From a virus, in the IMG/VR virus record IMGVR_UViG_3300045988_166882: a DNA stretch of 64,000 nt; one strand, written 5' to 3'. The notes under the pieces are model-generated. The model saw only the letters and a program-made list of their open reading frames with translations. It was not told where the DNA came from and ran no database searches. Each line of letters opens with the position of its first letter. Positions within the stretch are counted from its first letter, which is position 1. A program made the position numbers and the translations under genes. Below, piece by piece: positions 5,532-38,533 of this stretch.

Positions 5532-5602
5532 TGATTCGTGGTGTAACGGTAACACACCAGATTTTGGTTCTGGCGTTGGAGGTTCGAATCCTTCCGGGTC
5601 AA
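5532..5602 (+). tRNA. tRNA-Gln (anticodon UUG)
   Basis: 71-nt cloverleaf folded by hand.
- Acceptor stem TGATTCG/CGGGTCA (2 G-U pairs; U1-A72 as in bacterial tRNA-Gln).
- D stem GTGT/ACAC with loop AACGGTA.
- Anticodon stem CCAGA/TCTGG with loop TTTTGGT.
- 4-nt variable loop.
- T arm GGAGG-TTCGAAT-CCTTC.
- CCA is not encoded. Confidence 0.9.
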
Positions 5603-5883
5603 CTCTAAGGGCTTTTCGCGAAGAGCCTACCGAAGATCGCTAACGCCGCTGGCTGCGCTTCGGGTCGTGATAACCGGAATCACGATGACGCCGCGGCAAC
5701 CATAACCCCGAAGGTCAGGGGTTCAAAGAAATTTCGTTCGTCATCGTTGTGGCAGTTCGCCCGCCCGGCCGGCATGGGGAAGATCAATAGGAACGGCAAC
5801 CGACGAGCGCGGGGCGCGAAATATCGCCCCGACCCTAAAAGTCTTAACAGACTTCCATCAATCAAAGGTTTAATTCACCCCGG

Positions 5884-5953: not shown

Positions 5954-6832
5954 ATGAAGATAGGAATAATATACAAATTAACCATTTTAGCGAAGTACAA
6001 GTTCTACGGACAACGCCCCTTTTATGTCGGTCAACACTGGGGAATGGAAGACTTTAACTCGTATTTTGGCGGAGGTACAATTTGGAACGATTTTCTGAAT
6101 GTCGTCAAAAAGGATTATCCGCTTCACTGGAAAAAGTTTGTTCGGCGTGAAATTTTATATCAAGGCGCGTGTGATCAACGTGCTTTGGACTTTCTCGAAC
6201 AGTATTACATAAAGCGCGAAATGGCGCATTATACCGAAGAGAAAGGCGGTTGCAACGTTTTACGTGGTACGGCGAATGCGTTTGGCGCTGGGAGTCCGAT
6301 GAAGGACGAAAATTGCAAAAGAAAGCAGGCTGAATCGTTGAAAAAGTATTATGATGAATACGGACATCCGTGTTTAGGTAAAAGGGCAACTCCCGAACTG
6401 CGTAAACGGTTGAGTGAAGCGCATCGAGGCAAGAAACTATCGCCAGAAACGGTTGAAAAGATACGTAAAGCCAACGCTGGAAAGAAACGAACGCCTGAAT
6501 TTTGTGAGTTGATGCGTGAAATGTGGCGTAAACGGAAAGAAGCGGGTTACGTGCCAAAGAATAGAGGGCGAAAAGTCCCCAGGGAAATAGTTGAAAAACG
6601 AGCCGCAGGGGTACGTAAATATTATGCCGAACACGCTTCATCGTTTTTAGGTAAACACCACACCGAGGCTACAAGGTTAAAAATTAGTGAAGCGAATAAA
6701 GGCAAGAAATTACCGCCTTTTTCAGCTGAAACGAAATTAAAGATGAGCCAATCAGCCAAAAAGGCGTGGGCAATTAGAAAACAACAAAATAATTACAATG
6801 CGTCGTTCGAATTATCTTGTAATGGACACTGA
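5954..6832 (+). CDS. GIY-YIG homing endonuclease with NUMOD3-like DNA-binding repeats (free-standing)
   Basis: N-terminal GIIYKLT...FYVGQH matches the GIY/YIG motifs. The C-terminal half has repeated helices ELRKRLSEAHRGKKLSPE, TVEKIRKANAGKKRTPE, EATRLKISEANKGKKLPP and ETKLKMSQSAKK. Visibly AT-richer than the flanks. Confidence 0.85.
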   Translation: MKIGIIYKLTILAKYKFYGQRPFYVGQHWGMEDFNSYFGGGTIWNDFLNVVKKDYPLHWKKFVRREILYQGACDQRALDFLEQYYIKREMAHYTEEKGGCNVLRGTANAFGAGSPMKDENCKRKQAESLKKYYDEYGHPCLGKRATPELRKRLSEAHRGKKLSPETVEKIRKANAGKKRTPEFCELMREMWRKRKEAGYVPKNRGRKVPREIVEKRAAGVRKYYAEHASSFLGKHHTEATRLKISEANKGKKLPPFSAETKLKMSQSAKKAWAIRKQQNNYNASFELSCNGH

Positions 6833-11493: not shown

Positions 11494-12309
11494 ATGAAAA
11501 CTCTGATAGCACTATTCACCCGCGGTCGTATCGATCGCCAAAAGACCCTCCAACGGCTCACGCCTCAGGCGCGCCGCCGCGTGACGGTATTCTGTCACCC
11601 CGGCGAGTTGGCTGCTCACCAGCGTAACTGGGGCGGTGAGGTTGCCGCCATCGAGGAATACAGCACTGCGTGTCGCGGCGTGGGGGACATACGGGACTAC
11701 ATCGTTGTAGAGGCCCAAAAGCGGGGATTTGGCGGAGTCTTTTTCTTAGACGATAACGTGTCTTTCTCGCTGCGTTTAGACGATGCCAAGACCCCCGTGG
11801 TGGTAAACAACGACAATTTCACCGTCGAGGCCCAAGAATACATCTATTCGATGATGTTCGACTGGGTGGCGGAGCACTTGGACACCTACGCCGTCGCCGC
11901 GCTTTCGTATCGGCCCTTTAACCGCGACAAGGAACACGACGTACAAATCAACGGGCGATTCTTCTCCATTTGGGGACTGAACATCGCCCAGTACCTCAGC
12001 CAGCCCGTGAGGTTTCGCGATTGGCCTATCAAGGAAGACTTCGCCGTGGCTTGCGGTTTACGCCGCGCCGGGCTGGATAACGTGGTGTCGTACCAGTATT
12101 CGTTCGACAAGATGACCGGAGCCAACGCCGCTGGCGGTTGTTCCGTGTACCGCACTATCGAGAACTCCAACGCCGAGTCACAACGTTTAAGGGAAGAGTT
12201 CCCCGAATATATCACCCTTCGTACCAAGAAATGTACCAATTGGGGGGGTGAAATGAAGGACCGTGAAATGATTGAAGTTAAAATACACTTAAAAGGTTAC
12301 AAGAAATGA
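11494..12309 (+). CDS. GT-A-like (DxD) glycosyltransferase candidate, paralogue of 29682..30485
   Basis: Shares block order with the 29682 ORF:
- N-terminal strand LIALFTRGR vs FFVVSKNRP.
- Acidic turn FFLDDN vs VVMDDD.
- EDFAVACGL vs CDIDYSLKC.
- ANAAGGCSVY vs ANQGGGLQDVY.
Family assignment is not verified. Confidence 0.45.
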   Translation: MKTLIALFTRGRIDRQKTLQRLTPQARRRVTVFCHPGELAAHQRNWGGEVAAIEEYSTACRGVGDIRDYIVVEAQKRGFGGVFFLDDNVSFSLRLDDAKTPVVVNNDNFTVEAQEYIYSMMFDWVAEHLDTYAVAALSYRPFNRDKEHDVQINGRFFSIWGLNIAQYLSQPVRFRDWPIKEDFAVACGLRRAGLDNVVSYQYSFDKMTGANAAGGCSVYRTIENSNAESQRLREEFPEYITLRTKKCTNWGGEMKDREMIEVKIHLKGYKK

Positions 12310-12869
12310 TCGTAAAATTCAAGAAAGTACACCCCGACGCCGTACTGCCGCACTACGCTCACCCCGACGGTGAGGACAACGGACTGGACTTGGTTGCCGC
12401 AGCCGTTTTCGAGTCCGACGACTACATCGAGTACGACACAGGTATCGCCGTTGAAATCCCCAAGGGGTACTGCGGCCTGTTGGTCCCGAATTCACGTTGT
12501 TCGAAAAAGGACCTCGTGATGTGTAACGCGCCGGGTATCATCGACCCCGGATATCGCGGTACGATGCGTGCCCGCTACAAGAAGGTTTGGCACCTTCCGA
12601 CGCTGCTCCATAAGTTCCTCCGCAGCGTGTGTACGTTGTTCTCGAACGCCTTCGGTGAAATAGCCGGGTTGCGTGCACAGGAAATCAATTTCGACGTCAA
12701 GCAGTTTGAGGTCGGTGAGGTAGTGGCCCAGTTGGTTATCATCCCCGCGCCGCAGATCGAGGTTGAGGAAACTGACACGCTGACGCCTTCGATGCGTGAC
12801 ACCGCGGGGTTCGGTTCGACGGTAAAAGCGGTTCCCGAGAGCGAACGTGTTCAAAATGCCGAAAAATAG
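12306..12869 (+). CDS. dut: dUTP diphosphatase (trimeric dUTPase) with an internal insertion
   Basis: Motif I NGLDL, II PNSRCS, III GIIDPGYRG, IV GEVVAQLVI, V RDTAGFGST. About 40 extra residues sit between motifs III and IV. Confidence 0.85.
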   Translation: MIVKFKKVHPDAVLPHYAHPDGEDNGLDLVAAAVFESDDYIEYDTGIAVEIPKGYCGLLVPNSRCSKKDLVMCNAPGIIDPGYRGTMRARYKKVWHLPTLLHKFLRSVCTLFSNAFGEIAGLRAQEINFDVKQFEVGEVVAQLVIIPAPQIEVEETDTLTPSMRDTAGFGSTVKAVPESERVQNAEK

Positions 12870-12875
12870 AACGCC

Positions 12876-13046
12876 ATGGATCAACAACAATTACTGGCTC
12901 TTTTACTCGGAATAGGGTTCTTCTTCGTGATGCCGATTGCTCTTTTCCTGATCGGGTTGTCGAACGCTTCCTCAGATCGCCGTTTACGGCGTTATCGCGA
13001 AGAGTACAAACGAAAGTACGGATTTTATCCACCCGACGAATATTAA
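12876..13046 (+). CDS. small membrane protein (56 aa, below the ORF-track cutoff)
   Basis: ATG ORF MDQQQLLALLLGIGFFFVMPIALFLIGLSNASSDRRLRRYREEYKRKYGFYPPDEY. One clear hydrophobic helix plus a basic tail. It fills the gap between dut and the next gene. Confidence 0.4.
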   Translation: MDQQQLLALLLGIGFFFVMPIALFLIGLSNASSDRRLRRYREEYKRKYGFYPPDEY

Positions 13047-13050
13047 CAAA

Positions 13051-13638
13051 ATGAAAACGATCCTCCAACACAACCCCGCCAAACAGGACAACGTCGAAGC
13101 CATGGCCGACGCGCTGGTAGAGTCGATGCGCTTCGCTGACCCTACGGTTGATTATCCTGATATCTCCAAGGCCAAAGCCGACGACGGCGTTCCGGCCGAG
13201 TGGTTCCACAAGGCATACGCCGGCATTACCGGTACGTCGGAACTCACGGCCATTCTTCAGTACACGCAGCAGCGGATGATTTTTGACCAGATTGGAGAAA
13301 CGTTCCTCGGTATCGCCCTCACCGAGATGAAGCACTACGACCGATTAGGCGACTTCATCGACCATATCGGGGGCAGCGTATCGCGGCCCGTATTTTCGGC
13401 AGCCAAAGTGGACATTACGACCGAAAGCGCGGCCGAAGCCGTCCAGATCAACATCCGCGCCGAGCAGGACACCATCGCCGAGTACGAGAAACTCATTCAG
13501 CGTATTCAGGCCAACAACCCTACGCCGACCGTTACATCCACGCTGGCGGTTCAACTTATCAACAAAATCATCGCCGACGAGCGCGTCCACGTGCGGTTGT
13601 TGAGTGAATTGGCGATTATGATCGATGAAACGTTATGA
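13051..13638 (+). CDS. ferritin-like di-iron/di-manganese four-helix-bundle protein
   Basis: Ligand pattern E...ExxH...E...ExxH: SELTAILQY, EMKH, AEQDTIAEYE, ERVH. Resembles the Mn-catalase/CotJC/rubrerythrin-type ferritin-like fold. Confidence 0.65.
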   Translation: MKTILQHNPAKQDNVEAMADALVESMRFADPTVDYPDISKAKADDGVPAEWFHKAYAGITGTSELTAILQYTQQRMIFDQIGETFLGIALTEMKHYDRLGDFIDHIGGSVSRPVFSAAKVDITTESAAEAVQINIRAEQDTIAEYEKLIQRIQANNPTPTVTSTLAVQLINKIIADERVHVRLLSELAIMIDETL

Positions 13639-16795: not shown

Positions 16796-17110
16796 ATGGA
16801 CCGATGGAGATATTTCAAAATAGGTGATATCGTCACCGACCCCGAAGTGTGGGGAAAGACGATGTTCGTAATACGCACGCTGCACGGTAACGACTACTGC
16901 CCGCTGATCAGTGGCGAGTCCCTAAAACCGATCCGCGGTCGCCGTATAAGGGTAAACCTCGGCGTGGGGGAGACGCGTCTTGTAAACGCTCCTAAACGTC
17001 CGTTGATGAAGATTCCCGACGGTACGTTGGTGCGGTTAGCTGGAAAGAGCGTTGAAGCGCGGCGCGAATTGTTAATTAGAAGCTATCGTAAACAATATGG
17101 CAACGTTTGA
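16796..17110 (+). CDS. hypothetical protein (104 aa)
   Basis: ATG ORF after the terminator. No motif recognised. Confidence 0.5.
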   Translation: MDRWRYFKIGDIVTDPEVWGKTMFVIRTLHGNDYCPLISGESLKPIRGRRIRVNLGVGETRLVNAPKRPLMKIPDGTLVRLAGKSVEARRELLIRSYRKQYGNV

Positions 17111-18107
17111 CCATTATGCTTGGGCTGATAAACTACCCGACGCGTCGCTCGACGTGAGCGCAGAACACCACACGGAGTTCTTCCGGACGATGTTCGAGCG
17201 TCAGATGATATGGAAACGGCGGTTCTTAGATCAGGCTCCGCGCCCGTGGACTGAAGACCCCATACTACGCGACTACAAGTTTACCAACGTCTACCGCGAA
17301 CTGGACCGAAACTCCCAGTGGCAAATACGTAATATCCTACTCGATGACGGGTTGACGCTGGCGAATCTGGTGTGGAAGATGATGGTGTTCCGCTATTTCA
17401 ACAATCCCGCCACGTTCGAATACGCTCGCGAAAAGTACGGTTGGGGAGCCGGCATCCCGGATCACGACCAATACGACGAAGACCTCTTTGCCGAGATGAT
17501 AACGTCGTACCGCGCTACGGGTAACAATCCCTATACTACGGCGTATCTGATCAATTCGATGGCCACGCCCGGTAAGCCGCGCGACTACTGCTACACGCAC
17601 TTGGTCGTCCCGACGCTTCACCGTCGGTTAGGCGAACTGATGCGGACGGTGTTGACGGCTGACACTCCGGAGCAGATCATCAAGTTCCTTCAGAGCCTTC
17701 CTTCATCGGCGACGTTTATCGCTCACGAATTCTACCAAGACTTCACCTACATACCGCGTTACACCTATCGCCGTTTTATGCGTTTCACCCAAGACGACTA
17801 CACCAACGTCGGTCCCGGCGCGTCCATAGGGCTGCGGCTGGTGTTTCCGTCGTTGAAGTGCCAAATTGACGGTATCTACCGTTTGCGTGACGAAGCCCGC
17901 GAGGCTCTTCAGCAGTGTGGAGACTTTCCATACCTACATTGGGATCGCGCAGGGCGTTGCTACCGGGTGTCGCGCTGCGGCGACGTGACGCTTCATCAAG
18001 TTGAGATGTGGCTGTGTGAGTACCAGAAGTACTGGAAGATGAAGATCGGCGAAGGGAAGCAACGCTCAATCTTCGAACCGCGAACTCGTAAAATTGTAGG
18101 CCAATGA
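17097..18107 (+). CDS. candidate DNA thymidine-hypermodification enzyme (aGPT-Pplase / 5-hmdU-DNA-kinase helical-domain-like)
   Basis: N-terminal block RPWTEDPILRDYKFTNVYRELDRNSQW matches my recollection of the signature of the predicted alpha-glutamyl/putrescinyl-thymine pyrophosphorylase and 5-HMUDK helical-domain families. There is no P-loop. Not verified by search. Confidence 0.45.
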   Translation: MATFDHYAWADKLPDASLDVSAEHHTEFFRTMFERQMIWKRRFLDQAPRPWTEDPILRDYKFTNVYRELDRNSQWQIRNILLDDGLTLANLVWKMMVFRYFNNPATFEYAREKYGWGAGIPDHDQYDEDLFAEMITSYRATGNNPYTTAYLINSMATPGKPRDYCYTHLVVPTLHRRLGELMRTVLTADTPEQIIKFLQSLPSSATFIAHEFYQDFTYIPRYTYRRFMRFTQDDYTNVGPGASIGLRLVFPSLKCQIDGIYRLRDEAREALQQCGDFPYLHWDRAGRCYRVSRCGDVTLHQVEMWLCEYQKYWKMKIGEGKQRSIFEPRTRKIVGQ

Positions 18108-23808: not shown

Positions 23809-25884
23809 ATGAAAGAAGTTATCAACTACGGCGAAGCACGTCGCCAGCAAATTCTTAAAGGGTTCACCAACGTCGAGGAGGTCGCGGACGAGCCGATCGA
23901 AAAAGCGCGTCACGGTGTCTACGCCGACAACGCTCAAAACCGTCGTCTGCAGCGCGTGGGACAGGAGTACGGTCAAGCCGCCAAGGAAGACCCCGAAGGT
24001 GAAGGCCAGGAGGGCGGTATGCCTGAGGGCAACGTCAGCCTCCAGAACCACGCTCGTCAGGCTTCAGAAGAGGCGCTGACGAAGGTCGCCAACGACCCGC
24101 AGGCTGACCCCGAAATGCGCAAGGTGGCTACCGCTGAATTGGAACGCCGCGGTGTAAGCGTTCGCGCCAAGAACAAGAACGGCGACACTTCGCTGCGTAA
24201 CGGGTTGGCTGACGGTGACGCCAAATCGGCTTCGACGTTCGAGGGCATGGGCTTCCGCCAGATGGACGATCAGGACCTCCAACAGTACGCCGGAGTTGAG
24301 GACGCTTCGCACGCCTTCATCAAGCAGATCGGCAGTGACGAAGACGGCTTCGACCTTGTGGTCACCAAGACCAGCGAGGGCTACCGCGTGGACAAATACC
24401 CTTACGCCGACGTGGACAATTTCGAGTCGGTGACGGTGAAGGAGATTGGCGACGTTGAGGGAGCCGCGTCTAAGTTTGGTGATCCCGATGCCAAGGGTAA
24501 GGGCGGCAAAGCCGACGCCGCATCGCTCGTTGACAGTTTCAACGCTATGGCTGAGGGCGATGCAGACTTCGACGCCAAGTCGTTCAAATCGTTCGTGAAG
24601 GAAAAAGGCGGTAAGGCCGTGAAGGAAATCGCCGACGCCATTCGTAAGATGCCCAGCGAGGCCGGGCAAAGCGATCTGGCTGACGACGAGATCGCCGACA
24701 TGATCGAGAATATGTTCGAGGAAGCCGGAACGCGCGTTCCGCGTGAGGCCAAGAAGGAACTCGACAACCTTCGCGGGTCGGGTGAAAGCGTTCTGGCCAA
24801 GTGGGACGCCTACACTTCGGAGTCGGGTGAAGACGATGACTTCAGCGCAGCGCTCGAAAGCCTCATCGACAACAAGGGCGAGGCTAAGGCCATCAAGGAA
24901 CTCGCTGCCGCTATCAAAACCTCCGGTCAAGGTGAGGCCGCTCAGAGCGATATCCTCGACGACGAAATCGCTGACGAAATCGCCAATATCTTCGAAGAGG
25001 CCGGAATCGACCTGTCGAAGAAAGGTCAAGCCGCGCTCGACAAGATGCGTGCTGACTCGGACGGCGACGGTAACGTGAGCAGCGCCGAAGGTCTGGTCCA
25101 GAGTTTCGACGACATGGCCGAAAACGACACCGACTTCGACACCGCAGGCTTCAAGTCCTTCGTGAAGCAGAAGGGTGACGCCGCGGCTATCAAGGAACTG
25201 GCCGCAGCCATGAAAGCAAACCCGGCTGATACCGGCGGTGCTCAGTCCGACGCTACGGACGACGAAATTGCCGACACCATCGCCAATATGTTTGAGATGG
25301 CTGGTGTGAAGGTATCGAAGGACGGCCAGAAGGAACTCGACGCGCTGATCGGCGGCGAGGAGGAAAGCGCCACCAAGCAGGGCGAAAAGGCCGACGCCGC
25401 AGCCAAGGCTGAAGTGAAGAGCGCTGAAAAGGGTGCTAAAGCCAAGGCCGACAAAGCCGCGAAGTCTTCGCCTGAGAAGGACAACGCCGCCGCCGACAAA
25501 TTCATCAAGAAAAGCGAAAACGGAGCCAACCCCTCTGAGTACGCCAAGATGATCTCCAAGAACCCCGAAGGTATCGCCCGCGTGCTGAAGGAAAGGATCG
25601 CTTCCGGCGACAAGGCCGCTAAACGCGCTGCTCTGAGTCTCACTTCGCTCATCGACCCGGAGTCCCGTGAGAAGGGTGTCGGCCAAGAACTCCTCAGCCA
25701 CCCCGAACTCAAGAAGATTGCCGACGAACGTGCCGCAGCGCACAAACTGCTGACGGGCGTGTCTTACGACGATATGGACACGTACAAGAAGAAGTCAGAC
25801 GAGCAAATTGAGATATTCAAACGTACCAACAAGGAGTTCGTCGACAAGTTCCTGGAGATTTACGGCGGTAACACCGAAGAGTAA
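23809..25884 (+). CDS. acidic Ala/Lys/Asp/Glu-rich protein with three tandem ~95-aa repeats (scaffold or internal/cargo protein candidate)
   Basis: 691 aa. The N-terminus carries the motif GVYADNAQNRRLQRVGQEY. Three repeats contain F[KD]SFVK[EQ]KG..A[VI]KE[IL]A.A[IM]K....QSD..DDEIAD.I.N[MI]FE.AG. The antisense 559-aa ORF is judged a shadow ORF. Confidence 0.7.
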   Translation: MKEVINYGEARRQQILKGFTNVEEVADEPIEKARHGVYADNAQNRRLQRVGQEYGQAAKEDPEGEGQEGGMPEGNVSLQNHARQASEEALTKVANDPQADPEMRKVATAELERRGVSVRAKNKNGDTSLRNGLADGDAKSASTFEGMGFRQMDDQDLQQYAGVEDASHAFIKQIGSDEDGFDLVVTKTSEGYRVDKYPYADVDNFESVTVKEIGDVEGAASKFGDPDAKGKGGKADAASLVDSFNAMAEGDADFDAKSFKSFVKEKGGKAVKEIADAIRKMPSEAGQSDLADDEIADMIENMFEEAGTRVPREAKKELDNLRGSGESVLAKWDAYTSESGEDDDFSAALESLIDNKGEAKAIKELAAAIKTSGQGEAAQSDILDDEIADEIANIFEEAGIDLSKKGQAALDKMRADSDGDGNVSSAEGLVQSFDDMAENDTDFDTAGFKSFVKQKGDAAAIKELAAAMKANPADTGGAQSDATDDEIADTIANMFEMAGVKVSKDGQKELDALIGGEEESATKQGEKADAAAKAEVKSAEKGAKAKADKAAKSSPEKDNAAADKFIKKSENGANPSEYAKMISKNPEGIARVLKERIASGDKAAKRAALSLTSLIDPESREKGVGQELLSHPELKKIADERAAAHKLLTGVSYDDMDTYKKKSDEQIEIFKRTNKEFVDKFLEIYGGNTEE
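24520..25365 (+). repeat. three in-frame tandem coding repeats (~280 bp each)
   Basis: Units start near 24520, 24790 and 25075 at the protein level. Units 1 and 3 align end to end. Unit 2 has a diverged N-terminal part. Confidence 0.7.
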
Positions 25885-26592: not shown

Positions 26593-27122
26593 CAAAGGCT
26601 TTTCACGAGGCCAGCCGATATCGCGCCGATCACTTACGTAAGGCCCTTGGTGGTTTTACGGAGAACGGCCTGATCGAAAAGGGCCGTTCAAAGAGCGGTC
26701 GCTACGCCAACACGGCTGAGAATCGAAGAAAGGGACGTGTTGGCATGCCTTATGAAAAGAAAGGCCGTGGACCAGCGCCACACCAGCGTCGAGATTCTGA
26801 ACATCGCCGAAACGGTACGTATATTCGTACGCTTACTGCAGGTGACGGGAACGAGGCTCTCGAAATAGGCGAAGACGGCGTTGCTCGTAATGATTTTTAC
26901 GACAACCAAGAAGTCGGCAAATACACCAAGAAATACGAAAAAGTCAACAACGGAGACAAGGTTCGTTATGGTAGTAGAATCTATACCGTTTACGCCACAA
27001 AGAACTTAACCGAAGGCGGGGTAACAACGCAATTCGTTCAATTCACTGGTAAGCCTTCTTACAGTGGTGCTCCGCGTGGAACGGGCAAGTGGGTTCCCCG
27101 AAAAGACGTCGAGAAACTATGA
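26574..27122 (+). CDS. hypothetical basic protein carrying the YANTAENRRKGRVG motif (182 aa)
   Basis: IEKGRSKSGRYANTAENRRKGRVGMPY aligns with IEKARHGVYADNAQNRRLQRVGQEY of the 23809 ORF. Confidence 0.5.
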   Translation: MQVDEVTKAFHEASRYRADHLRKALGGFTENGLIEKGRSKSGRYANTAENRRKGRVGMPYEKKGRGPAPHQRRDSEHRRNGTYIRTLTAGDGNEALEIGEDGVARNDFYDNQEVGKYTKKYEKVNNGDKVRYGSRIYTVYATKNLTEGGVTTQFVQFTGKPSYSGAPRGTGKWVPRKDVEKL

Positions 27123-28051
27123 TTTTCAACAATCGCCAAATAGACGACATGGTCGGCATTCTCCGGCGTTGGCAGTACCTGTTTATTGCCAAGCACGTCG
27201 GATTAGACTTTCTGACCCAGTCGGAGATCGACATCTTGGTGGCGTCAGGGGTCAACGTCGATAAGTACAAGAACACGAAAGGTATCATCGAACACGCTTT
27301 TCTGTTCGGTATCTTGGCTGAGGCACTCGGCGATCAACGCGCCAAGAAGATGAATTACAAGCAGTTTCTCCAGTACCTCAAATCAGGAAACTTCGTTCCG
27401 CTCACCGAGCAGGAGGAGAACGCGCTGAATTATCTCAAGAACCGCGCCTACACCGACATCACGTCGCTCGGAAACCGTATCGTTACCGGTACGCGCAACG
27501 CCATCCTCAAATCTAACTTTCGTCAGCAAGCCGCCATACGCCAGCAGATCAAAGATAAGGCCATGCAAGCCGTCCAACTGCGTAAGGGGGCGCGGTATAT
27601 AGCCAGCGAATTGGGGAACCTTACCCAAGACTGGGGACGCGATTGGCTGCGTATTGCGTACTACCTTCTGCACGAAGCCTACAACGTGGGCCGCTCGGAA
27701 AGTATCTACAAGCAGTATGGCCCCGACGCTATGGTGTATTTCGACGTATACCCCGGCGCGTGTGCCAAATGCCGCGAGTTGTACTTGGAGGACCCCGAAG
27801 ACCCTAATTCGAAGCCAAAACTGTTCCGCCTCGGAGACCTTATCGCCAACGGTAACAATATCGGCCGTAAGGTGGCTGAGTGGCTTCCTACGATCGACCC
27901 GACGCACCCCTACTGCCGCTGTACTATCAACCACGTACCGCCGGGGTACGAGTGGGACCCTGAAACACGCGCTTTCACCAAGCCTGTCAAGCGTCAGTTC
28001 AAGAACCCAAAGTTAAGGAACGTGAAACTCAACATTAAAGTAACAAAATAA
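27119..28051 (+). CDS. head morphogenesis protein, SPP1 gp7 / Mu F-like
   Basis: C-terminal LPTIDPTHPYCRCTINHVP carries the HPxCRC signature of the family. The start is taken at the ATGA overlap (27119) rather than track start 27089. Confidence 0.7.
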   Translation: MIFNNRQIDDMVGILRRWQYLFIAKHVGLDFLTQSEIDILVASGVNVDKYKNTKGIIEHAFLFGILAEALGDQRAKKMNYKQFLQYLKSGNFVPLTEQEENALNYLKNRAYTDITSLGNRIVTGTRNAILKSNFRQQAAIRQQIKDKAMQAVQLRKGARYIASELGNLTQDWGRDWLRIAYYLLHEAYNVGRSESIYKQYGPDAMVYFDVYPGACAKCRELYLEDPEDPNSKPKLFRLGDLIANGNNIGRKVAEWLPTIDPTHPYCRCTINHVPPGYEWDPETRAFTKPVKRQFKNPKLRNVKLNIKVTK

Positions 28052-29010
28052 TGAAAAACAAAATCGTACAAGACCCCCCGTTCACCATGCAGATCGAGCC
28101 GACCGAGGGTTGTAACTTGGGGTGTTCGTTCTGCGGCCTTCACGGCATGCGTGAAAAGGGTACCAAACCGTGGAATTTCATGACCGTCGAAACCGCCGAG
28201 CGTATCGCTTCTGAGGTAGCGCGTGTGGGCTGGAATTGCAAGTTCGTGTTCGCTATGCACGGCGAACCCACGCTCAACCCGGCGTTCATCGACATCGTGG
28301 CCACGTTCCGCAAGCACTTGCCGAAGGCCGTGTTCCATATGTACAGCAACGGCTACGCCATGAACCACGCCGACGACACCGAGGCTTACCTCGACCGCCT
28401 GTTCGGCGCTGGCATGAACGACATCTTGGTGGACTGCTACACCGCCAACGGCGACTGGAATTTCGTCGAGAAGATCGATGTCGATAAGTACAACGTCGTC
28501 ACGCTGGAACCGGGCGTTCCGTACTACTACCCCAAGCAGGGCCGTCGTATCTGCTTGCTGCCGCCCATCGCCCAGGACGATACCAACAAGATGACGCGGC
28601 GTCTGGCCAACCACTGCGGCGCGGCGTTCCCGCTCGACGATTCGTTCAACAACAAGCGTTGTACTTTCCCGTTCCGGGAACTGGACGTGCGCTGGAACGG
28701 TCAGGTCTGCTTGTGTTGTGACGACTTCCGCGGTGAGTACCCCATCGCCAACATCCACGACATGCCCATCGAAGACCTTTGGAACCACCCGCGCTTCCAC
28801 GCCGCTCGCGTGATGCTGTACAATAACGACCGCCGCTTCCGCCCGTGTCAGGGGTGTACGCACGTCAGCGTTCGCGTTGGCTTCCTGCCTGACAAGAAGG
28901 GTAAGCAGACGCTGCCGGCTATCACGCCCGAAATCCGCCGTATGGCTGAAGAGGTATCGAAGGACGGCCCCTGCGCCGAGAAGATTTACCGACGGCCATG
29001 GGAAAAATAA
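28051..29010 (+). CDS. radical SAM enzyme with C-terminal Cys-rich (SPASM/twitch-like) extension
   Basis: EPTEGCNLGCSFCG contains CxxxCxxC, and HGEPTLNP resembles the SAM-binding motif. C-terminal cysteines: CTFPF...CLCCDDF...CQGC. The start overlaps the MuF stop (TAATG). Confidence 0.85.
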   Translation: MKNKIVQDPPFTMQIEPTEGCNLGCSFCGLHGMREKGTKPWNFMTVETAERIASEVARVGWNCKFVFAMHGEPTLNPAFIDIVATFRKHLPKAVFHMYSNGYAMNHADDTEAYLDRLFGAGMNDILVDCYTANGDWNFVEKIDVDKYNVVTLEPGVPYYYPKQGRRICLLPPIAQDDTNKMTRRLANHCGAAFPLDDSFNNKRCTFPFRELDVRWNGQVCLCCDDFRGEYPIANIHDMPIEDLWNHPRFHAARVMLYNNDRRFRPCQGCTHVSVRVGFLPDKKGKQTLPAITPEIRRMAEEVSKDGPCAEKIYRRPWEK

Positions 29011-29678
29011 AGTACCTTTGTGTCGAGTCTCAAGCGGGTGATCTCCTGATGAGTGCTTGTCACGTTTTAGTAGCACCTGAATATGACGTTCGGGTGCTTA
29101 CTGTAGATAACGCCCCAAAGCCTTTGGCTGAGCAGCAGCGGTTGTACGATTTTCTGGGTATCGGGATGGACCGCTTGGACTTAGAGTTAGAAGATGTCCG
29201 TTGTGGCGATTTTAAGGCCCATTCTGCGGACTGCAACTACGAAGGCGTCTATACGTACCTTCGCGCGAAATACGGGAACGACGGACTTAATTTCGCCGAA
29301 CAAACGCTTCGCGATTACCTGCGTAAGTTTATGCGCCGCAACCCCGGTTACGTGATACTGGCGCCGCTGGGGTCGGGACACCCCTTCAACCAGTTCGTTC
29401 ACGATGTGGTGTTTGATACGGCGTCGGCGGCAGAATACTATCGCGACTTTCCATATTCGTACGTACCACGGGGTCGTGAACAGGTCAGGGTCCAGTGCTA
29501 CGGCGGCGAAACTTTACTGATGAAACGCCGAGTTCCGTGCGACGATATGTTCGACGTGAAGTGGGAACTGGCTATGCGCTTCTACCCGTCGTTATCGCCG
29601 ACGATACGCAAGTATCAGCGTTTTATAGAACAAAACCCGCCCGAAGAAATCTGGTACGAGGGCGATTTACCATTTTAA
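28998..29678 (+). CDS. hypothetical protein (226 aa)
   Basis: Overlaps the radical SAM gene by 13 nt. Only a faint LmbE/PIG-L-like topology (VILAPLGSGHPFNQFVHD), and the N-terminal metal motif is not conserved. No function is assigned. Confidence 0.5.
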   Translation: MGKIKYLCVESQAGDLLMSACHVLVAPEYDVRVLTVDNAPKPLAEQQRLYDFLGIGMDRLDLELEDVRCGDFKAHSADCNYEGVYTYLRAKYGNDGLNFAEQTLRDYLRKFMRRNPGYVILAPLGSGHPFNQFVHDVVFDTASAAEYYRDFPYSYVPRGREQVRVQCYGGETLLMKRRVPCDDMFDVKWELAMRFYPSLSPTIRKYQRFIEQNPPEEIWYEGDLPF

Positions 29679-29681
29679 GCT

Positions 29682-30485
29682 ATGGATTGTCAATTCTTCG
29701 TCGTGTCCAAGAACCGCCCCAAGTGCGTCACGACCAAATTGTTGGAAAAGGGCGGCGTCGACTACCACATCGTGGTCGAAAAGGAAGACGTTGAAAAGTA
29801 CGTCGAAGCAGGTCACGACCGTAAGCGGTTGATCGTACTACCAGCGTCGAACCGCGGCTACAGCTACGTGGTCAATTTCTGCAAGAACACCTACCTCCGC
29901 GCCGGGCGGCCTGTGGTGGTGATGGATGACGATATCGCCAACTTCTTCTACTCGATCGACGGCGAAGCCAAATGCGGCCTTTCGCTGAAGACCCCAGAAG
30001 AACTGTCAGAGTTCTTTGAAGAGTTCAACCGCGAAGTCATGGAGACCGACTTCGAGTACGGCACCATGGGCAAGAGCGCCTTCGACTGGAGTTGTACCGA
30101 CGTCAGCCCGCGTTTCAAGTACGGCGGTATCCCTCACCTCATCGTGTTCAAAGGGCTGCGGACGCTGGAGTTGGACTTTGACGAAAAGTTGGAGTTGAAG
30201 TGCGACATCGACTATTCGTTGAAGTGTATGTATCTGGGCATCGTCTACGCACGCTTCGTACGCTTCCTTCTCCAGAGTAAGATGAACAAGGAGGCAAATC
30301 AGGGCGGCGGCCTTCAAGACGTGTACGAGCGTCAGGAACGTGTTCAGCGTGCTCACAACATCATATTGAAGCGGTGGCCGCTGAACGCCCGTGTCGATGA
30401 CAAGAAGAAGCCCATCAACGGCGTACCGGAGTTACGTATTGTGTACAAGAAATTTGATATTGACTTTGATGCGGTGGAGGTGTAG
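29682..30485 (+). CDS. GT-A-like (DxD) glycosyltransferase candidate, paralogue of 11494..12309
   Basis: FFVVSKNRP...HIVVEKEDV...VVVMDDDIANF...ANQGGGLQDVY. See the entry at 11494. Family not verified. Confidence 0.45.
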   Translation: MDCQFFVVSKNRPKCVTTKLLEKGGVDYHIVVEKEDVEKYVEAGHDRKRLIVLPASNRGYSYVVNFCKNTYLRAGRPVVVMDDDIANFFYSIDGEAKCGLSLKTPEELSEFFEEFNREVMETDFEYGTMGKSAFDWSCTDVSPRFKYGGIPHLIVFKGLRTLELDFDEKLELKCDIDYSLKCMYLGIVYARFVRFLLQSKMNKEANQGGGLQDVYERQERVQRAHNIILKRWPLNARVDDKKKPINGVPELRIVYKKFDIDFDAVEV

Positions 30486-30520: not shown

Positions 30521-32269
30521 ATGTCAGACAATATCCAAAAAGCAAAGCACAACGTCGGCGATCATCATCCTACGCAACCGTGGGTGTGGACGGAGTACAA
30601 GCCCGGAAAGTTCAACTGGCGTGTCGACAAGAACGCCAAACCCAAGGACAACGCCGATACCGGTAAACAATCGACAGGCGGCGGCGCCACGAGCCTCGAA
30701 GAGTGGGCTAAGCGTACCACCGACGACAACCTGCTCAAAGTAGTAAACAACCCCAAAGGTAACGCGCAGTTGCGGCAGATTGCCTACAACGAACTGAAGT
30801 CACGTAACGCCGATCTTTTGCAGGTCGATACAAGCGGTACGTTGGCCACGCTGTTGAAGATGACCACCCAGCAGGACCCCGTGGCACCCACCAACGCCGC
30901 GGCTAAAGTAGACATCAACGACGGCGAGGGCGGAAACGACGACGGTGAAATCGTTGAAGACTGGTTCCTCAACCCTGACGACCCGCGCATTCAGAAGAAG
31001 TTCAACAAACTCCAAAGCCGTCAGGACCGTATTGCGTACGACCGCTTCGTCTACGCGATGAAGAAGAAGGACCCTGACTACCAGCCGCCTGTTGAGGTGA
31101 TGTACGACCTGAACCGCCAGTATCTGGAGTTCTTGGACAACAAGGAGCAGCGGTTCATGATCTCGGCTGGTGGTGCCGGTATCGGTAAATCGTACGGTTT
31201 CAAGAAAATCGCCGAACTGCTCAACAAGCGTCCGTTTGACGCCGAAACCGACGCGCCGGGCGATGGCGACTATGACTACGTTGAACTCGGTGACATCAAC
31301 TCCAAGAAGCAGCTGCTGGGCGTACTCAAAGCCCACAACGGCAAGATTCTTCTGTTCGACGATACCGACTCCGTTATCACCCGCGCCGACTTGGCTTCCA
31401 TCATGAAGAAGGCCACTTCCGCTTCAGGTAAGCGCGTGGTCGGAGACCCGGACGACGTCAAGTCGAATTTCGTATTCACGGGCCGTATCATCATCATGAC
31501 CAACAAGGACCTCGTGAACCTCGCCAAGAACGAGGATGCCAAGGCTATCATTTCGCGCGCTACGCTGACGTCGGAAGTCTACCTGACCGTTGACGAGACG
31601 ATCGAGGTTCTGAAGGACCGCTACGAAGACATGGACGTTCCCCAGCAGCCGCACCTCGATGACCCCGAAGAGGACAAGCAGGAACGTAAAGAACTGTTTG
31701 ACCTTATTGTCAAGAACAAGAATAAGATCGACCCTGCCAAGTTTACCACCCGTACCTTTGGCACCATCTTGTCGGAGAAGCGTTCTGCCGACCGCGCTAA
31801 CAAGCGCGCCAAGCAGGGCGGTCAGTGGACAAACCTGATCGGCAGCCAGCAAAAGGAGTGGGAACGCGCCGCCGTTCGTGCACTGACGAAGGGACTCGCG
31901 TACGAGGCCATTCAACCCGTCGAAACGTCGGATGATATCAGTAAGGCCGAAGCCCTGCTCAGCGACGCAGAATCGCTCGAAAAGGCCGATTTTACCGAAG
32001 AGCAGCGTGAGAAACTTGCCAAGAAGAAGGAGGCCCTCCCTGACGGCTCGTTCCCGATTCGTAACAAGTCCGACCTGAAGAACGCCATCCGTCTTGCTGG
32101 TAACGCCAAAAACCCCGAACGCGCTCGGCGCTGGATCAAACGCCGCGCCAAGTCGCTCGGTGCTGAGGATATGATCCCCGACACGTGGAAGGCTCAGACT
32201 ACTGACCTCGGTTCGCTGCCGGCTGACGACATGTCGATCGAAAAGGCTGAAACCCTCTTGTTCGGATAA
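30521..32269 (+). CDS. P-loop NTPase (AAA-like) with phage-type C-terminal DGSFPIRN...AIRLAGNAKNP motif
   Basis: Walker A ISAGGAGIGKSYG, Walker B KILLFDDTD, then GRIIIMTNK. The C-terminal LPDGSFPIRNKSDLKNAIRLAGNAKNPERARRWIKRRAKSLG resembles a short module I recall from actinophage capsid/protease-associated proteins. Confidence 0.65.
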   Translation: MSDNIQKAKHNVGDHHPTQPWVWTEYKPGKFNWRVDKNAKPKDNADTGKQSTGGGATSLEEWAKRTTDDNLLKVVNNPKGNAQLRQIAYNELKSRNADLLQVDTSGTLATLLKMTTQQDPVAPTNAAAKVDINDGEGGNDDGEIVEDWFLNPDDPRIQKKFNKLQSRQDRIAYDRFVYAMKKKDPDYQPPVEVMYDLNRQYLEFLDNKEQRFMISAGGAGIGKSYGFKKIAELLNKRPFDAETDAPGDGDYDYVELGDINSKKQLLGVLKAHNGKILLFDDTDSVITRADLASIMKKATSASGKRVVGDPDDVKSNFVFTGRIIIMTNKDLVNLAKNEDAKAIISRATLTSEVYLTVDETIEVLKDRYEDMDVPQQPHLDDPEEDKQERKELFDLIVKNKNKIDPAKFTTRTFGTILSEKRSADRANKRAKQGGQWTNLIGSQQKEWERAAVRALTKGLAYEAIQPVETSDDISKAEALLSDAESLEKADFTEEQREKLAKKKEALPDGSFPIRNKSDLKNAIRLAGNAKNPERARRWIKRRAKSLGAEDMIPDTWKAQTTDLGSLPADDMSIEKAETLLFG

Positions 32270-35613: not shown

Positions 35614-37359
35614 ATGCCGAGTTTTGTAAATATGGCGTCGCTTACCAAGTTGACGTCGATTACGGGAAACGAAGAGTTTCAAGTCTCAGCTACCAACAAG
35701 ATTAGTTCAAGAGACATAGCTTCATTGGCGCTTACACAGCAATTACATGGTTTATCGGAGGTCACTATTGGATCACCAAAAATATCAAGTACCTCGTTGT
35801 TGCTGTCTGCCATAGCAGCACTTTACAGGCTTAGTAGCGACAATGGTAAAATACTTCCAATTTCCAACGGTATTGATAAGTTCGGAAATGTCGTTTTTTC
35901 CGGTACTAATGCAGTCGGGATATTATTCGATGTGAAGGCATCCAAATACTTTACCCGATCAGGAGTGACTGCCACTGCAATCTTCAACAGCGCGCAATGG
36001 ATTTCTTGGTTGCAAGACGGAGAGGCTCATGAGATGGACGGTGGTTCCGGTGTTGCCGATCCGATTCAGATTCACGACTTCGCCGAGGTCAGTGCTATCG
36101 ACAACTGGCCGACGCCTAAAGACGGTCTGATTATTCCGTTTGTTACGGATTCAGGCGTTCTGAATAAACCGGGGAACGAATCCGAGTACGTGGGCATCAT
36201 CATCTGCGAAGTAGATACCCAAAATACGGGCCGCGCCGAAGTAATTGCTTACGGATGTGGAACTGGTGCGTGCTATGTAGGATTACTGGATTATGCTTCG
36301 GTCAGTATCGAATGGATGGTAAACAAAATGTCGGTCGCTGGCAAAAAACTTAGCGCGTTTACCGGTACTGCAATCGGAAACTATATTCAGAGCATGGGAA
36401 ATGCTGGTGACTTATTTCCGTTCGTCACTGTAAACGCCAACAAGACTACCGCTAACCAGTTTCCGGCCAACGGTGCATGGAGTGGATTCGTCACCATTGG
36501 TGACGGGGGTGGTGTAAACATTATTGCTTTCAAAAGCACCACTGATCCGAATGCCGAGGTTTATGTCGGTCGTTGTAGTGGCGGCACTACCCAATGGACC
36601 CTCGTCGGTGGTGGTAGTGGTGGTGGTGGTGGACTGGACGTGATTAATGTTCCTATGGGCGGTGATATAGGCTCCATCATTGCTGGTGCAAACTGGAAAC
36701 AAACGGGAATGGAGGGAGAGATGAAAGCCGTTTTTGTCTTGGACCCTGCAAGTGTTGTTGGAGACTATTTTCCGAATCTTAAAAACGCTCAGACACTCGC
36801 AGGATTTGCTCAATGTGTCTATGACGGTTCAGACTATCAGTATTTCATAACCACCCTATTCCCGTATACAGACACATTACGCAATCTCTCAAAAGAGTAT
36901 GGGCGAATTCTTTCAGAAACTAACGGGGATGTTATCGACTATGAAGAATATCCGTATTGTGGAGAGGCCCCTATTCCCGGTTATTCTACTTTAGTGAACG
37001 TATGGCGTGGTCCTTTAGTGACAGATAGTACCGGGGTTATAAATTTTAACGCTGAGATACCTACATCTTCAAAGATATTGGTTGTCGCAAAACTGCGTAG
37101 CTCAACTGCTACAACAGCCAATGTCGTAGCGAATATCCCTATAACTTTTGTTGATGTAAATTCGACAGGCCAAGGAATTATACTCGACTACACAAACCTA
37201 CTCATAGGTAAAAACGGTGTTCCCGGTTCCATAAGGCTCATTTGTTCGTCTGTTATTACTGGAGCTACGGGTGTACAAGGTATGAATTTCGTGTTACAAG
37301 TGAGCAACGTATCAGATGTGTCTAATATTCTCGAAATAGCGATGTATAGCAATAGATAG
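35614..37359 (+). CDS. tail fibre / receptor-binding protein (expressed orientation)
   Basis: 581 aa, Ser/Thr/Gly/Asn-rich, with a Gly linker GGGSGGGGG. The C-terminal 252 aa are homologous to the inverted cassette 37844..38605. The locus is AT-richer than its neighbours. Ends with TAG. Confidence 0.6.
   Translation: MPSFVNMASLTKLTSITGNEEFQVSATNKISSRDIASLALTQQLHGLSEVTIGSPKISSTSLLLSAIAALYRLSSDNGKILPISNGIDKFGNVVFSGTNAVGILFDVKASKYFTRSGVTATAIFNSAQWISWLQDGEAHEMDGGSGVADPIQIHDFAEVSAIDNWPTPKDGLIIPFVTDSGVLNKPGNESEYVGIIICEVDTQNTGRAEVIAYGCGTGACYVGLLDYASVSIEWMVNKMSVAGKKLSAFTGTAIGNYIQSMGNAGDLFPFVTVNANKTTANQFPANGAWSGFVTIGDGGGVNIIAFKSTTDPNAEVYVGRCSGGTTQWTLVGGGSGGGGGLDVINVPMGGDIGSIIAGANWKQTGMEGEMKAVFVLDPASVVGDYFPNLKNAQTLAGFAQCVYDGSDYQYFITTLFPYTDTLRNLSKEYGRILSETNGDVIDYEEYPYCGEAPIPGYSTLVNVWRGPLVTDSTGVINFNAEIPTSSKILVVAKLRSSTATTANVVANIPITFVDVNSTGQGIILDYTNLLIGKNGVPGSIRLICSSVITGATGVQGMNFVLQVSNVSDVSNILEIAMYSNR
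36589..36600 (+). repeat. left arm of 12-nt imperfect inverted repeat (ACCCAATGGACC) at the constant/variable junction
   Basis: Encodes T-Q-W-T. Its partner at 38594..38605 reads ACCCAGTGGACC on the minus strand (11/12 identical), in the same codon phase. Confidence 0.55.
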
Positions 37360-37401
37360 ATTAACAGTGGTGCATCTTCGGGTGGAATAGCTCCCGGTAC
37401 A

Positions 37402-37809
37402 GTGATATTCAACGACGAATTTTCGTTTGATGGCTACACCAGCGCAAATCCCGGTCAGTTGTCTCTCTTACAACCTATTCCGTTAGGGTCCATAGTGACT
37501 TTCATAGGATCGTATTATTTTGGACTTCCCGCCGAAGAAATTTTACTTTCACCCGAAAGCCATACATGGTCATTTACAGTAGCTTTACCCACTGGAGCTT
37601 CCAGTGTCGCACACTATCTGAAAGACATGTTAGTCGTGCAAAATCCCGATACAAATTTGGTAGTAGACAGACAATCCGCGATGTACAAAATAGATGCCAA
37701 AAATCTCGTTAATGGCAAAATCAGTACAATAGATATGTACGCTACTGGAGTTCTGTTGTCTGATATGTATTTAACGATTGAGCAAATTATCTATGTTGCG
37801 CAGGTATAG
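37402..37809 (+). CDS. hypothetical protein (135 aa), possibly fibre chaperone or read-through extension
   Basis: No ATG start (GTG at 37402). It is in the same frame as the fibre gene and separated from it only by TAG (37357-37359) plus 14 sense codons. Confidence 0.4.
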   Translation: MIFNDEFSFDGYTSANPGQLSLLQPIPLGSIVTFIGSYYFGLPAEEILLSPESHTWSFTVALPTGASSVAHYLKDMLVVQNPDTNLVVDRQSAMYKIDAKNLVNGKISTIDMYATGVLLSDMYLTIEQIIYVAQV

Positions 37810-37813
37810 AATA

Positions 37814-37845
37814 AATCCCCCTCCTATTAAGAGGGGGATTTTCTT
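37814..37845. terminator. bidirectional rho-independent terminator between convergent genes
   Basis: Perfect 10-bp stem AATCCCCCTC / GAGGGGGATT with a 7-nt loop. T-rich on the + side (TTTCTT) and A-rich upstream (T-rich on the minus strand). Confidence 0.8.
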
Positions 37846-38533
37846 AGATATTGGCATACACACCTTTAATCCGCAAAATATCAGATGGATTACCTAAATT
37901 GTTTGATGTTACAACTACTTGTAATCCCTGAATCCCTTTCGCTCCTGTCACAACAGAAGCAACATTCAAACGGATTTGCCCGATATTAGTTCCGGACGCA
38001 ATACTTCGGGTGTTCAAATCCATAAGTGTTGCTGCTTGTACGGGATTAAAGAACGTTACAGGAATAGCCACTGATCGAATGTCAGCATTGGGACCAGCCG
38101 ATGATCTGAGTTCGGCGTCAATGAACATTGCCGTACTGTTGATGACCTCATAGTTAAAATTCACAATCATCAAACTCCCTGCTGATAATGCCAAGTCATA
38201 TTGATTGGCTATTTTGGTAAATCCGGGGATAGGGGATGCAAAGGTACCAATGGGGGTCAACATGGTCTCCATTACGTCACCGCTATTGTTCATCAGCACT
38301 TCTCCCCGGTAAGCGATCCGGCCTGATGTTTCCCATATTGTGAAGGTTAGTCCAATGTGTTGATAATCTCCGCCATCATACACACGCTGGGCATATCCAA
38401 CAATAGTAGATTCAGCCTGCGGAAAAGAAGCGTTTTTGATCTGAGGTAATTGATCGTATATATCGGATGACGGCTCTATGAATACAGGCACTATTTCGCC
38501 ATCCTTATCCCACGAGTGATTTTCAACAATCAT
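37844..38533 (-). CDS. alternative tail-fibre C-terminal cassette (only minus-strand gene), likely silent/5'-truncated in this orientation
   Basis: The 229-aa ORF aligns block by block with the C-terminus of 35614..37359. The homology continues 24 codons upstream of its ATG, up to position 38605, in an open frame with no start codon. Confidence 0.6.
   Translation of the reverse strand: MIVENHSWDKDGEIVPVFIEPSSDIYDQLPQIKNASFPQAESTIVGYAQRVYDGGDYQHIGLTFTIWETSGRIAYRGEVLMNNSGDVMETMLTPIGTFASPIPGFTKIANQYDLALSAGSLMIVNFNYEVINSTAMFIDAELRSSAGPNADIRSVAIPVTFFNPVQAATLMDLNTRSIASGTNIGQIRLNVASVVTGAKGIQGLQVVVTSNNLGNPSDILRIKGVYANI

Follow-up and report, generated by a model that had tools for sequence, protein, structure and literature searches.

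The entire stretch of DNA considered here, referred to as the window, comprises 64,000 nucleotides (nt) of the IMG/VR virus record IMGVR_UViG_3300045988_166882. Within it lie three tightly coupled genes, encoding a radical S-adenosylmethionine enzyme (rSAM), a protein of predicted deacetylase fold, and a glycosyltransferase (GT) of the TET-associated family (TAGT), which probably take part in the hypermodification of phage DNA:

28051-29010, plus strand: ORF1, radical SAM enzyme (rSAM), 319 amino acids (aa)
28998-29678, plus strand: ORF2, predicted LmbE/PIG-L-fold protein, 226 aa
29682-30485, plus strand: ORF3, assigned as TAGT-family glycosyltransferase 2 (TAGT2), 267 aa

An original prediction, made by reading the sequence, had described these open reading frames (ORFs) as a coupled unit on the plus strand, and both the ORF listing and renewed reading of the sequence bore out this arrangement together with its three junctions. 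The TAA stop codon of the upstream gene (28049-28051) and the ATG of the rSAM at 28051 have one A in common (TAATG), ORF1 and ORF2 overlap by 13 nt (ATG of ORF2 at 28998, end of the rSAM stop codon at 29010), and 3 nt, "gct", separate the stop codon of ORF2 (29676-29678) from the ATG of ORF3 at 29682. Another 35 nt lie between the end of TAGT2 and the next gene. In public gene calls, ORF2 is 209 aa long and starts from an internal ATG; the 226-aa start, and with it the 13-nt overlap, is preferred because divergent homologues, down to 24-40% identity, keep the N-terminus ("MGK..K.L.I") and the motif directly following it. Judged from the gene spacing, it is plausible that the trio is co-transcribed (a "single late transcript"); scans for promoters and terminators, and for the Bacteroidetes -33/-7 pattern, returned no signal above chance across the block. 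A megablast search of the trio region against GenBank phages gave no match.

ORF1 matched the Pfam families Radical_SAM (PF04055; 1.3e-15, 58.4 bits, cut-off 29.5) and SPASM (2.6e-12, 47.3 bits, cut-off 21.5). Across 26 homologues, the CX3CX2C cluster (C21/C25/C28, CNLGCSFC) was invariant, as were five C-terminal cysteines, and only these five (C204, C222, C223, C266, and C269). The canonical cluster and the Cys-rich extension of the SPASM/twitch type, both pointed out in the original prediction, are thus backed by the Pfam SPASM score and by the conservation of the cysteines. Twitch domains have approximately four cysteines and one cluster, SPASM domains seven to eight (7-8) cysteines and two clusters. 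Because only five C-terminal cysteines are invariant, and because four of them (C204/C222/C266/C269) align with the four Cys that bind BtrN's one auxiliary cluster, the auxiliary domain of the rSAM is predicted to be twitch-like, with one Fe-S cluster, and not a full SPASM domain. The fifth, Cys223, sits beside a cluster ligand and could, by way of speculation and in analogy to rSAM epimerases, be a hydrogen donor. BtrN was the best sequence match in the PDB (1.7e-8), and was also the top Foldseek match (4m7t; E=4e-13; template modelling score [TM] 0.79 of the target, covering 79% of BtrN) of the AlphaFold2 (AF2) model (predicted local distance difference test [pLDDT] 80), followed by anSME, EpeE, PqqE, DesII, MoaA, BlsE, and SpeY. 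Of these, DesII, BlsE, and SpeY are twitch enzymes acting on sugars or cyclitols, and the characterised proteins nearest to the rSAM catalyse oxidation, epimerisation, or other tailoring of sugars, cyclitols, or the side chains of peptides. No spore photoproduct lyase (SPL), the fold of the M6 gp53 type, was among the top 50 structural matches, and the model places the rSAM in the BtrN/twitch lineage, unrelated to the SPL-like M6 gp53. Although BtrN is the top fold match, identity to it is 19%, and the genomic context is phage DNA modification rather than an aminoglycoside cluster; the rSAM is predicted to work like BtrN but was not filed as a member of the BtrN family. A tblastn search of the rSAM against GenBank phages yielded only N-terminal, motif-level matches to rSAMs of Campylobacter phages, which were judged uninformative. 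In two representatives of the rSAM family (P0259 and P0388; P-numbers denote such representatives), the gene is split by an intein with an HNH domain, inserted exactly at the invariant auxiliary-cluster motif, between CC and DDF; because the inteins sit exactly there, this site is considered functionally critical.

ORF3 matched Pfam TAGT (PF20691; 1.3e-13, 51.8 bits, cut-off 27.5) and phrog_842, "beta-glucosyl-HMC-alpha-glucosyltransferase" (1.8e-18), and it has R12, D82-D83-D84, and D175, positions conserved across 40 TAGT sequences. From these matches, ORF3 is assigned to the TAGTs, a family of DNA-base glycosyltransferases. Characterised or assigned members transfer sugar onto hydroxymethylated bases of phage DNA, or onto the first sugar there (PMC13390438, PMC8256090), and metavirome TET-associated GTs were shown to place Glc or GlcNAc on hydroxymethylated DNA bases (PMC8256090). 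Neither the scanned ORFs of the window nor the precomputed Pfam calls of flanking loci contained a TET_JBP match, that is, a TET/JBP dioxygenase, and tblastn of TAGT2 against GenBank phages gave no match.

The original prediction had called the trio "radical SAM - unknown - glycosyltransferase"; the two outer identities stood, and the middle gene could be resolved as LmbE-like in fold. ORF2 of the window itself matched nothing in Pfam, PHROGs, or NCBIfam, and tblastn against GenBank phages again found no match. Divergent homologues were recovered by analysis of neighbouring genes and then with a family profile, which yielded 201 clusters. Their invariant motifs PHSDD, GHPFH, and FPHSY resemble the LmbE/PIG-L signature AHPDD + HPxH. 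Two homologues gave near full-length Pfam PIG-L matches below threshold (19.9 and 15.7 bits, cut-off 28.2), and one member carries the Joint Genome Institute (JGI) name LmbE-family deacetylase. The sole PDB match of the family profile was the LmbE-family enzyme Dbv21, at a non-significant E=2. The AF2 model of ORF2 (pLDDT 91) had as its top Foldseek match the teicoplanin GlcNAc-pseudoaglycone deacetylase 2xad (E=7e-7, TM 0.58), which stands far above generic Rossmann matches, and on this model ORF2 is predicted to have the LmbE/PIG-L sugar N-deacetylase fold. A different identity, that of a divergent TAGT paralogue, had been suggested by an iterated profile that matched TAGT2; ORF2::TAGT2 fusions had contaminated this profile, and the candidate was rejected in favour of the LmbE fold.

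In place of PHSDD/GHPFH/FPHSY, ORF2 of the window has SQAGD/GHPFN/FPYSY, and the first motif of the clade to which it belongs reads SQAGD or PHAGD. All catalytic-type residues are retained in 121 of the 129 representatives of the ORF2 family; the eight without them are the window clade alone. Selection was compared by the ratio of nonsynonymous to synonymous substitution rates (dN/dS), the figures being approximate because dS, at 0.6-1.1, is near saturation: ORF2 reached 0.12-0.26 in the window clade, vs ∼0.03 for the flanking rSAM and TAGT2 (the rSAM at about 0.03; TAGT2 at 0.02-0.04, strong purifying selection). In clades that retain the motifs, the dN/dS of ORF2 was 0.02-0.06, a constraint equal to or above that of the rSAM. 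ORF2 of the window is thus very probably inactive as a deacetylase but still maintained. Devoid, as it appears, of metal ligands and catalytic base, it would most likely be a non-catalytic partner or scaffold, or else a vestige under moderate selection.

Further genes with a bearing on DNA modification are found in the same phage, four of them in the window:

11494-12309, plus strand: TAGT-family glycosyltransferase 1 (TAGT1); Pfam TAGT 2.4e-14, phrog_842 4.6e-28
12306-12869, plus strand: dUTPase/dCTP-deaminase-like protein; Pfam dUTPase 2.4e-11, DCD 1.4e-4, phrog_135 2.7e-29
13051-13638, plus strand: ferritin/rubrerythrin-like protein; Pfam Ferritin 3.1e-8, Rubrerythrin 6e-5
17097-18107, plus strand: 5-hydroxymethyldeoxyuridine (5-hmdU) DNA kinase (HMUDK), a marker of thymidine hypermodification; Pfam HMUDK_hel 6.9e-50

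TAGT1 and TAGT2 cannot be aligned by BLASTP and represent distinct subfamilies. TAGT1 and the dUTPase-like gene directly follow the intein-containing terminase gene, and HMUDK immediately precedes the portal gene. The location of the trio in what looks like a late virion-assembly unit had been taken in the original prediction to set it apart from the nucleotide-metabolism genes; this was misleading, and the positional argument loses its force because DNA-modification genes are spread through the structural region of the same phage. A ThyA-family protein of 405 aa is encoded on a contig of this phage (L092 7601-8818; L-numbers denote fetched viral loci), ∼13 kb past the window. Its best PDB match was the pyrimidine hydroxymethylase MilA, but it has Asn, like thymidylate synthase, where MilA has the Asp that specifies cytosine. 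To judge from this homologue, the hydroxymethyl group probably stems from it instead of from a TET/JBP enzyme, the dUTPase-like protein probably supplying the dUMP. An aGPT-Pplase-type transferase had no Pfam match in any scanned ORF or precomputed annotation, and no pyridoxal phosphate (PLP), flavin adenine dinucleotide (FAD), or acetyltransferase genes were found among the scanned ORFs. Nor was an aminotransferase among them, although the ∼12 kb of the ∼100-kb genome outside the scan could encode one, or some other tailoring gene. The portal shares ∼41% identity with that of a Chryseobacterium phage and with those of SPO1-like phages; SPO1 and SP8 are classic phages with hydroxymethyluracil (hmU) in their DNA. 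The block TAGT1 - dUTPase-like - ferritin-like (11494-13638) is syntenic in L056, L068, and L077, sometimes with an rSAM paralogue before it. The ferritin-like protein, possibly of the di-iron kind, may have a part in this pathway too.

The distribution of these genes was assessed in 80 fetched viral loci, which were annotated with iterated local hidden Markov models (HMMs) and counted over 34 rSAM lineages (clusters at 80% identity). The rSAM family comprises 270 clusters at 90% identity and 285 clusters at 50% identity (E <= 1e-30), and an index of the assembly collection lists the exact window protein in 1059 blocks. A search of 185,579 species genomes gave a single match to the rSAM family, a contig of this very phage binned into a Bacteroidales metagenome-assembled genome; the family is essentially viral. 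None of the 50,697 GenBank phage records contained a cultured phage with any protein of the trio at full length. Co-occurrence of the trio across phages had been put forward as a check, and its lack as refuting, which proved to be half the case. The exact trio, with both TAGT and LmbE-like genes within 3 kb of the rSAM, was a minority architecture, found in 5/34 lineages, but the rSAM was paired with either TAGT or LmbE-like gene in 31/34, and with TAGT in 19/34. An LmbE-like gene was near the rSAM in 17/34 lineages, all belonging to the ∼100-kb lineage, and in all 17/17 cases the two genes followed a homologue of the 320-aa, putative MuF-like protein encoded upstream of the trio. In 12/34 lineages, X480, a conserved ∼480-aa protein, was encoded within 3 kb in TAGT2's place. 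HMUDK was present in the locus of 14/34 lineages (7/34 within 3 kb) and directly adjoins the rSAM in L079-L080 and L086.

In ∼50-kb phages, TAGT and rSAM genes overlap within the replication module, with a ThyA homologue and a small gene resembling nucleotide kinases as neighbours, and compact HMUDK-TAGT-rSAM-ThyA-like clusters are found in the replication modules of unrelated phages (L079-L088). The ThyA homologue of the compact clusters also has the uracil-type Asn. The dUTPase-like gene is syntenic with TAGT1 and rSAM in L056, L068, L077, L083, and L087, and an rSAM paralogue lies directly upstream of TAGT1, with the same 13-nt overlap, in L050, L054, and L056. Moreover, each pair of the three proteins occurs fused in a single ORF: TAGT::rSAM in L079/P0253 and P0265, LmbE::TAGT in L040, L048, and L074, and rSAM::LmbE in P0251 (hhalign probability 100%). 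Because linkage is near-universal and all three pairwise fusions exist, the rSAM, the LmbE-like protein, and the TAGT are proposed to share a single pathway linked to DNA that contains 5-hmdU, a case about as strong as genomic evidence gets.

Some individual loci show further arrangements. The record IMGVR_UViG_3300035510_000313 (L043 + L056) has two rSAM paralogues, of which one is paired with an LmbE-like gene and one with a gene like TAGT1, and in L040 the LmbE::TAGT fusion is flanked by two rSAM genes. X480 was not identified by Pfam, by PHROGs, or with its profile against the PDB; its invariant stretch "NGFIIEAxLNGxYPV" looks GT-B-like, which is a visual impression only. P0261 (709 aa) joins an X480-like N-terminal domain to an rSAM, the similarity being weak (hhalign probability 51%).

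Gene context and fusions strongly support a step in DNA base hypermodification, the first of the roles that had been suggested for the trio, and we consider it likely that the trio belongs to a post-replicative pathway that hypermodifies DNA on the basis of 5-hmdU, and not to virion-protein modification. In such a pathway, the ThyA homologue would make hm-dUMP from the dUMP supplied by the dUTPase-like enzyme, and 5-hmdU, the presumed acceptor base, would enter DNA. The TAGT enzymes would then transfer sugar to the hydroxymethyl group, or to a sugar already present there, with a UDP-hexose or UDP-HexNAc as the presumed donor; as to the order of these steps, TAGT1 probably comes first, and TAGT2 adds a second sugar or an alternative one. 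The amine of an N-acetyl-hexosamine would, in the majority of related phages, be freed by a metal-dependent deacetylase of the LmbE type; a deacetylase partner is chemically sensible because phage TET-associated GTs transfer GlcNAc to DNA. The BtrN-like twitch rSAM could take a hydrogen off one of the carbinol carbons of the sugar on DNA, a reaction type that would result in a keto-sugar or an epimer. That the sugar on 5-hmdU is remodelled in this way on DNA, by the rSAM and, in most lineages, the LmbE protein, giving a so far unknown class of nucleobase with a keto-, epimerised, or amino-sugar, is put forward tentatively, as a possibility on which we would not yet rely.

Several points weigh against this proposal. 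HMUDK activates the same hydroxyl that a GT needs, and no aGPT-Pplase was found among the scanned ORFs, a difficulty for any cooperation of kinase and GT; HMUDK may act on a subset of sites or on the sugar, or may provide a phosphodiester link. X480 takes TAGT2's place in most relatives (L003 11619-13067 and 32 other loci). The ORF2 deacetylase is degenerate in this window, and the trio may work here as a duo, and the ThyA homologue could be an ordinary thymidylate synthase. The substrates of BtrN and DesII are free small molecules and not polymers, and peptides are very often the substrates of SPASM/twitch enzymes.

Other readings place the same enzymes in a different chemical context. In line with a further role suggested in the original prediction, tailoring of a sugar donor, the rSAM, with the deacetylase in relatives, could remodel a nucleotide-sugar before the TAGT transfers it to DNA, which would still yield a hypermodified base but require no radical chemistry on DNA. 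We regard this as unlikely, even though DesII and BlsE, both structural neighbours of the rSAM, use nucleotide-linked sugars, and a GT-rSAM fusion would suit substrate channelling equally well. BtrN, the best fold match, is no nucleotide-sugar enzyme, and the ∼45 scanned ORFs contained no nucleotidyltransferase or other gene for nucleoside-diphosphate sugars. Furthermore, characterised LmbE-family enzymes work on GlcNAc already joined to an aglycone, after glycosyl transfer, and not on UDP-GlcNAc; because they act after transfer, tailoring on DNA is favoured, if not proven, over tailoring of the donor.

It is rather improbable that the rSAM acts directly on the pyrimidine side chain, for example on 5-hmdU phosphorylated by HMUDK, to create a C-C or rearranged linkage, with glycosylation being a separate matter. 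M6 gp53, which is SPL-like and to date the one rSAM with a demonstrated part in DNA hypermodification, provides a precedent from thymidine hypermodification (PMC8989533), but the rSAM described here is of the BtrN/twitch lineage. Likewise, the adjacency of HMUDK and rSAM in the loci named above, and a kinase product with no aGPT-Pplase to use it, would fit such direct chemistry, whereas the steady partner of the rSAM is a GT or sugar deacetylase (31/34) and not the kinase (7/34 within 3 kb), and it is to a GT and to a deacetylase that the rSAM is physically fused.

Modification of a virion protein, with the trio glycosylating or cross-linking a protein of the head, the MuF protein, or a cargo protein as the virion is assembled, had also been suggested, and is consistent with the position of the trio inside the structural block, where it overlaps a putative head gene upstream, and with the fact that anSME and many maturases of RiPPs (peptides made on the ribosome and modified after translation), which are SPASM/twitch enzymes, modify peptides. 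The suggestion found no support: other phages keep the same rSAM family with ThyA-like, HMUDK, and replication genes, the structural block of this phage holds further DNA-modification genes, and no precursor-peptide-like ORF was evident. Characterised TAGT members, too, act on DNA (PMC13390438, PMC8256090), and we consider a virion protein a very unlikely target. That the trio alters a glycan on the surface of the host, for instance in superinfection exclusion, is extremely improbable, since, although pairs of GT and PIG-L deacetylase are common in cell-envelope pathways, no signal peptide or membrane segment was evident in the translations, the trio is linked to HMUDK and ThyA-like genes, and the family is absent from bacterial genomes.

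Turning back to tailoring of a sugar on 5-hmdU DNA, the closest functional analogy to the trio, as judged by enzyme class, would be found in natural-product pathways. In the aminoglycoside 2-deoxystreptamine pathway, BtrM (GT), BtrD (PIG-L deacetylase), and BtrN (twitch rSAM dehydrogenase) cooperate, and the tunicamycin pathway combines the same three enzyme classes (TunD/TunE/TunB). In addition to the three classes, likeness to the Btr triad extends to BtrN being the closest solved relative of the rSAM and to a deacetylase fold like that of natural-product GlcNAc deacetylases. Unlike there, the enzymes here would act on a sugar joined to viral DNA and not on a free small molecule, identity to BtrN is as low as given above, and the deacetylase is degenerate in the window clade. 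With base J (beta-glucosyl-hydroxymethyluracil) of kinetoplastids, the system shares the predicted core, a glycosylated 5-hmU in DNA, but hmU here probably comes from the nucleotide-level ThyA homologue and not from oxidation by JBP, the GT families differ, and the sugar would be tailored further.

Among phages, the thymidine hypermodification systems of M6, ViI, PhiW-14, and SP10 (Lee et al. 2018 and 2021; PMC5889632, PMC8989533) are similar in having a 5-hmdU DNA kinase and a ThyA-family enzyme and in being post-replicative, and that of M6 also in the participation of an rSAM (gp53). They differ in that GTs and a deacetylase-fold protein were found here instead of aGPT-Pplase, PLP, FAD, and acetyltransferase genes, in that the rSAM here is of the BtrN/twitch type and not SPL-like, and in that the predicted appendage is a sugar and not an amino acid. 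T-even/TAGT glycosylation (T6 second-glucose GT; metavirome GTs, PMC8256090; PMC13390438) likewise relies on TAGT-family GTs, and the two divergent GTs in one genome here suggest mono- and then di-glycosylation. In contrast to those systems, the GTs go with HMUDK and a uracil-type ThyA (hmU) and not with a C5-methyltransferase (C5-MT)/TET pair or a dCMP hydroxymethylase (hydroxymethylcytosine, hmC), and their coupling or fusion to an rSAM and an LmbE-fold protein is not known from any described system. A literature search, incomplete in coverage, turned up no publication in which enzymes of the LmbE type or twitch rSAMs are connected with DNA hypermodification.

Upstream of the trio lies the putative head gene whose stop codon overlaps the rSAM start:

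27089-28051, plus strand: putative MuF-like head protein, 320 aa

The label MuF-like, given to it in the original prediction, could not be substantiated, as neither the protein itself nor 10 divergent homologues had a Pfam or PHROG match; we take the C-terminal "THPYCRC" motif to be the only support for it. Homologues in L015 (7971-10001), L035 (8240-9946), and L072 (7237-9237) are 568-676 aa long owing to an intein (Intein_splicing + DUF559 endonuclease) at about residue 265-285, near the conserved HPxCRC; the copy in the window is intein-free. The two large proteins downstream of the trio were called putative cargo in the original prediction, a label that stays putative; the 582-aa protein directly downstream (30521-32269) shows a weak P-loop/AAA_30 signal and a match to phrog_1250, and several of its paralogues surround the MuF-like gene in L001, L043, and L074. 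The large terminase gene (8757-11474, Terminase_6C at the C-terminus of the protein) is broken by an intein that carries a homing endonuclease of the LAGLIDADG type (Hom_end_hint 3e-12, Hom_end, LAGLIDADG_3). Also in the window are a tRNA-Gln gene (anticodon TTG, 5532-5603, called by both ARAGORN and Rfam) and, after it, a homing-endonuclease-like ORF containing NUMOD3 (5954-6832). A very acidic protein of 691 aa (23809-25884) has three long repeats at the protein level, with the pattern "..KSFVK.KG...IKE.A.A.K......QSD..DDEIAD.I.NMFE.AG.."; the region has a high GC content (0.58) and an AT skew of 0.255, and Tandem Repeats Finder (TRF) detected no DNA tandem repeat in it. This protein may be a scaffold or internal protein. 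In a variable cassette at 35614-38533, the GC content falls to 0.445; it is here that the window has its one clear gene on the minus strand (37844-38533), and the cassette gene is 291, 387, or 574 aa long in otherwise near-identical relatives (L006, L007, and L008). The cassette may be a hot spot for receptor-binding or accessory genes.

To our knowledge, all characterised 5-hmdU pathways add amino acids or polyamines via aGPT-Pplases, and we know of no characterised DNA glycosylation that goes beyond plain hexoses, GlcNAc, or arabinose. The trio, viewed as a module for phage DNA hypermodification whose chemistry we infer entirely from its genes, predicts a third branch, in which a DNA GT is combined with sugar tailoring in the style of natural products (twitch rSAM, LmbE deacetylase). 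If this is true, DNA would for the first time be the site of radical-SAM carbohydrate chemistry and of sugar N-deacetylation. The module appears to be widespread, in an abundant, uncultured lineage of ∼100-kb phages as well as in several unrelated phage groups. Whether phage DNA withstands restriction enzymes, CRISPR nucleases, or type IV systems depends on its hypermodifications, which are also a source of useful enzymology. The module offers clonable candidates for new DNA chemistry, natural fusions among them, with the naturally inactivated deacetylase as a comparison. In sequencing and in assays that rely on restriction, the DNA of these abundant phages may show abnormal behaviour.

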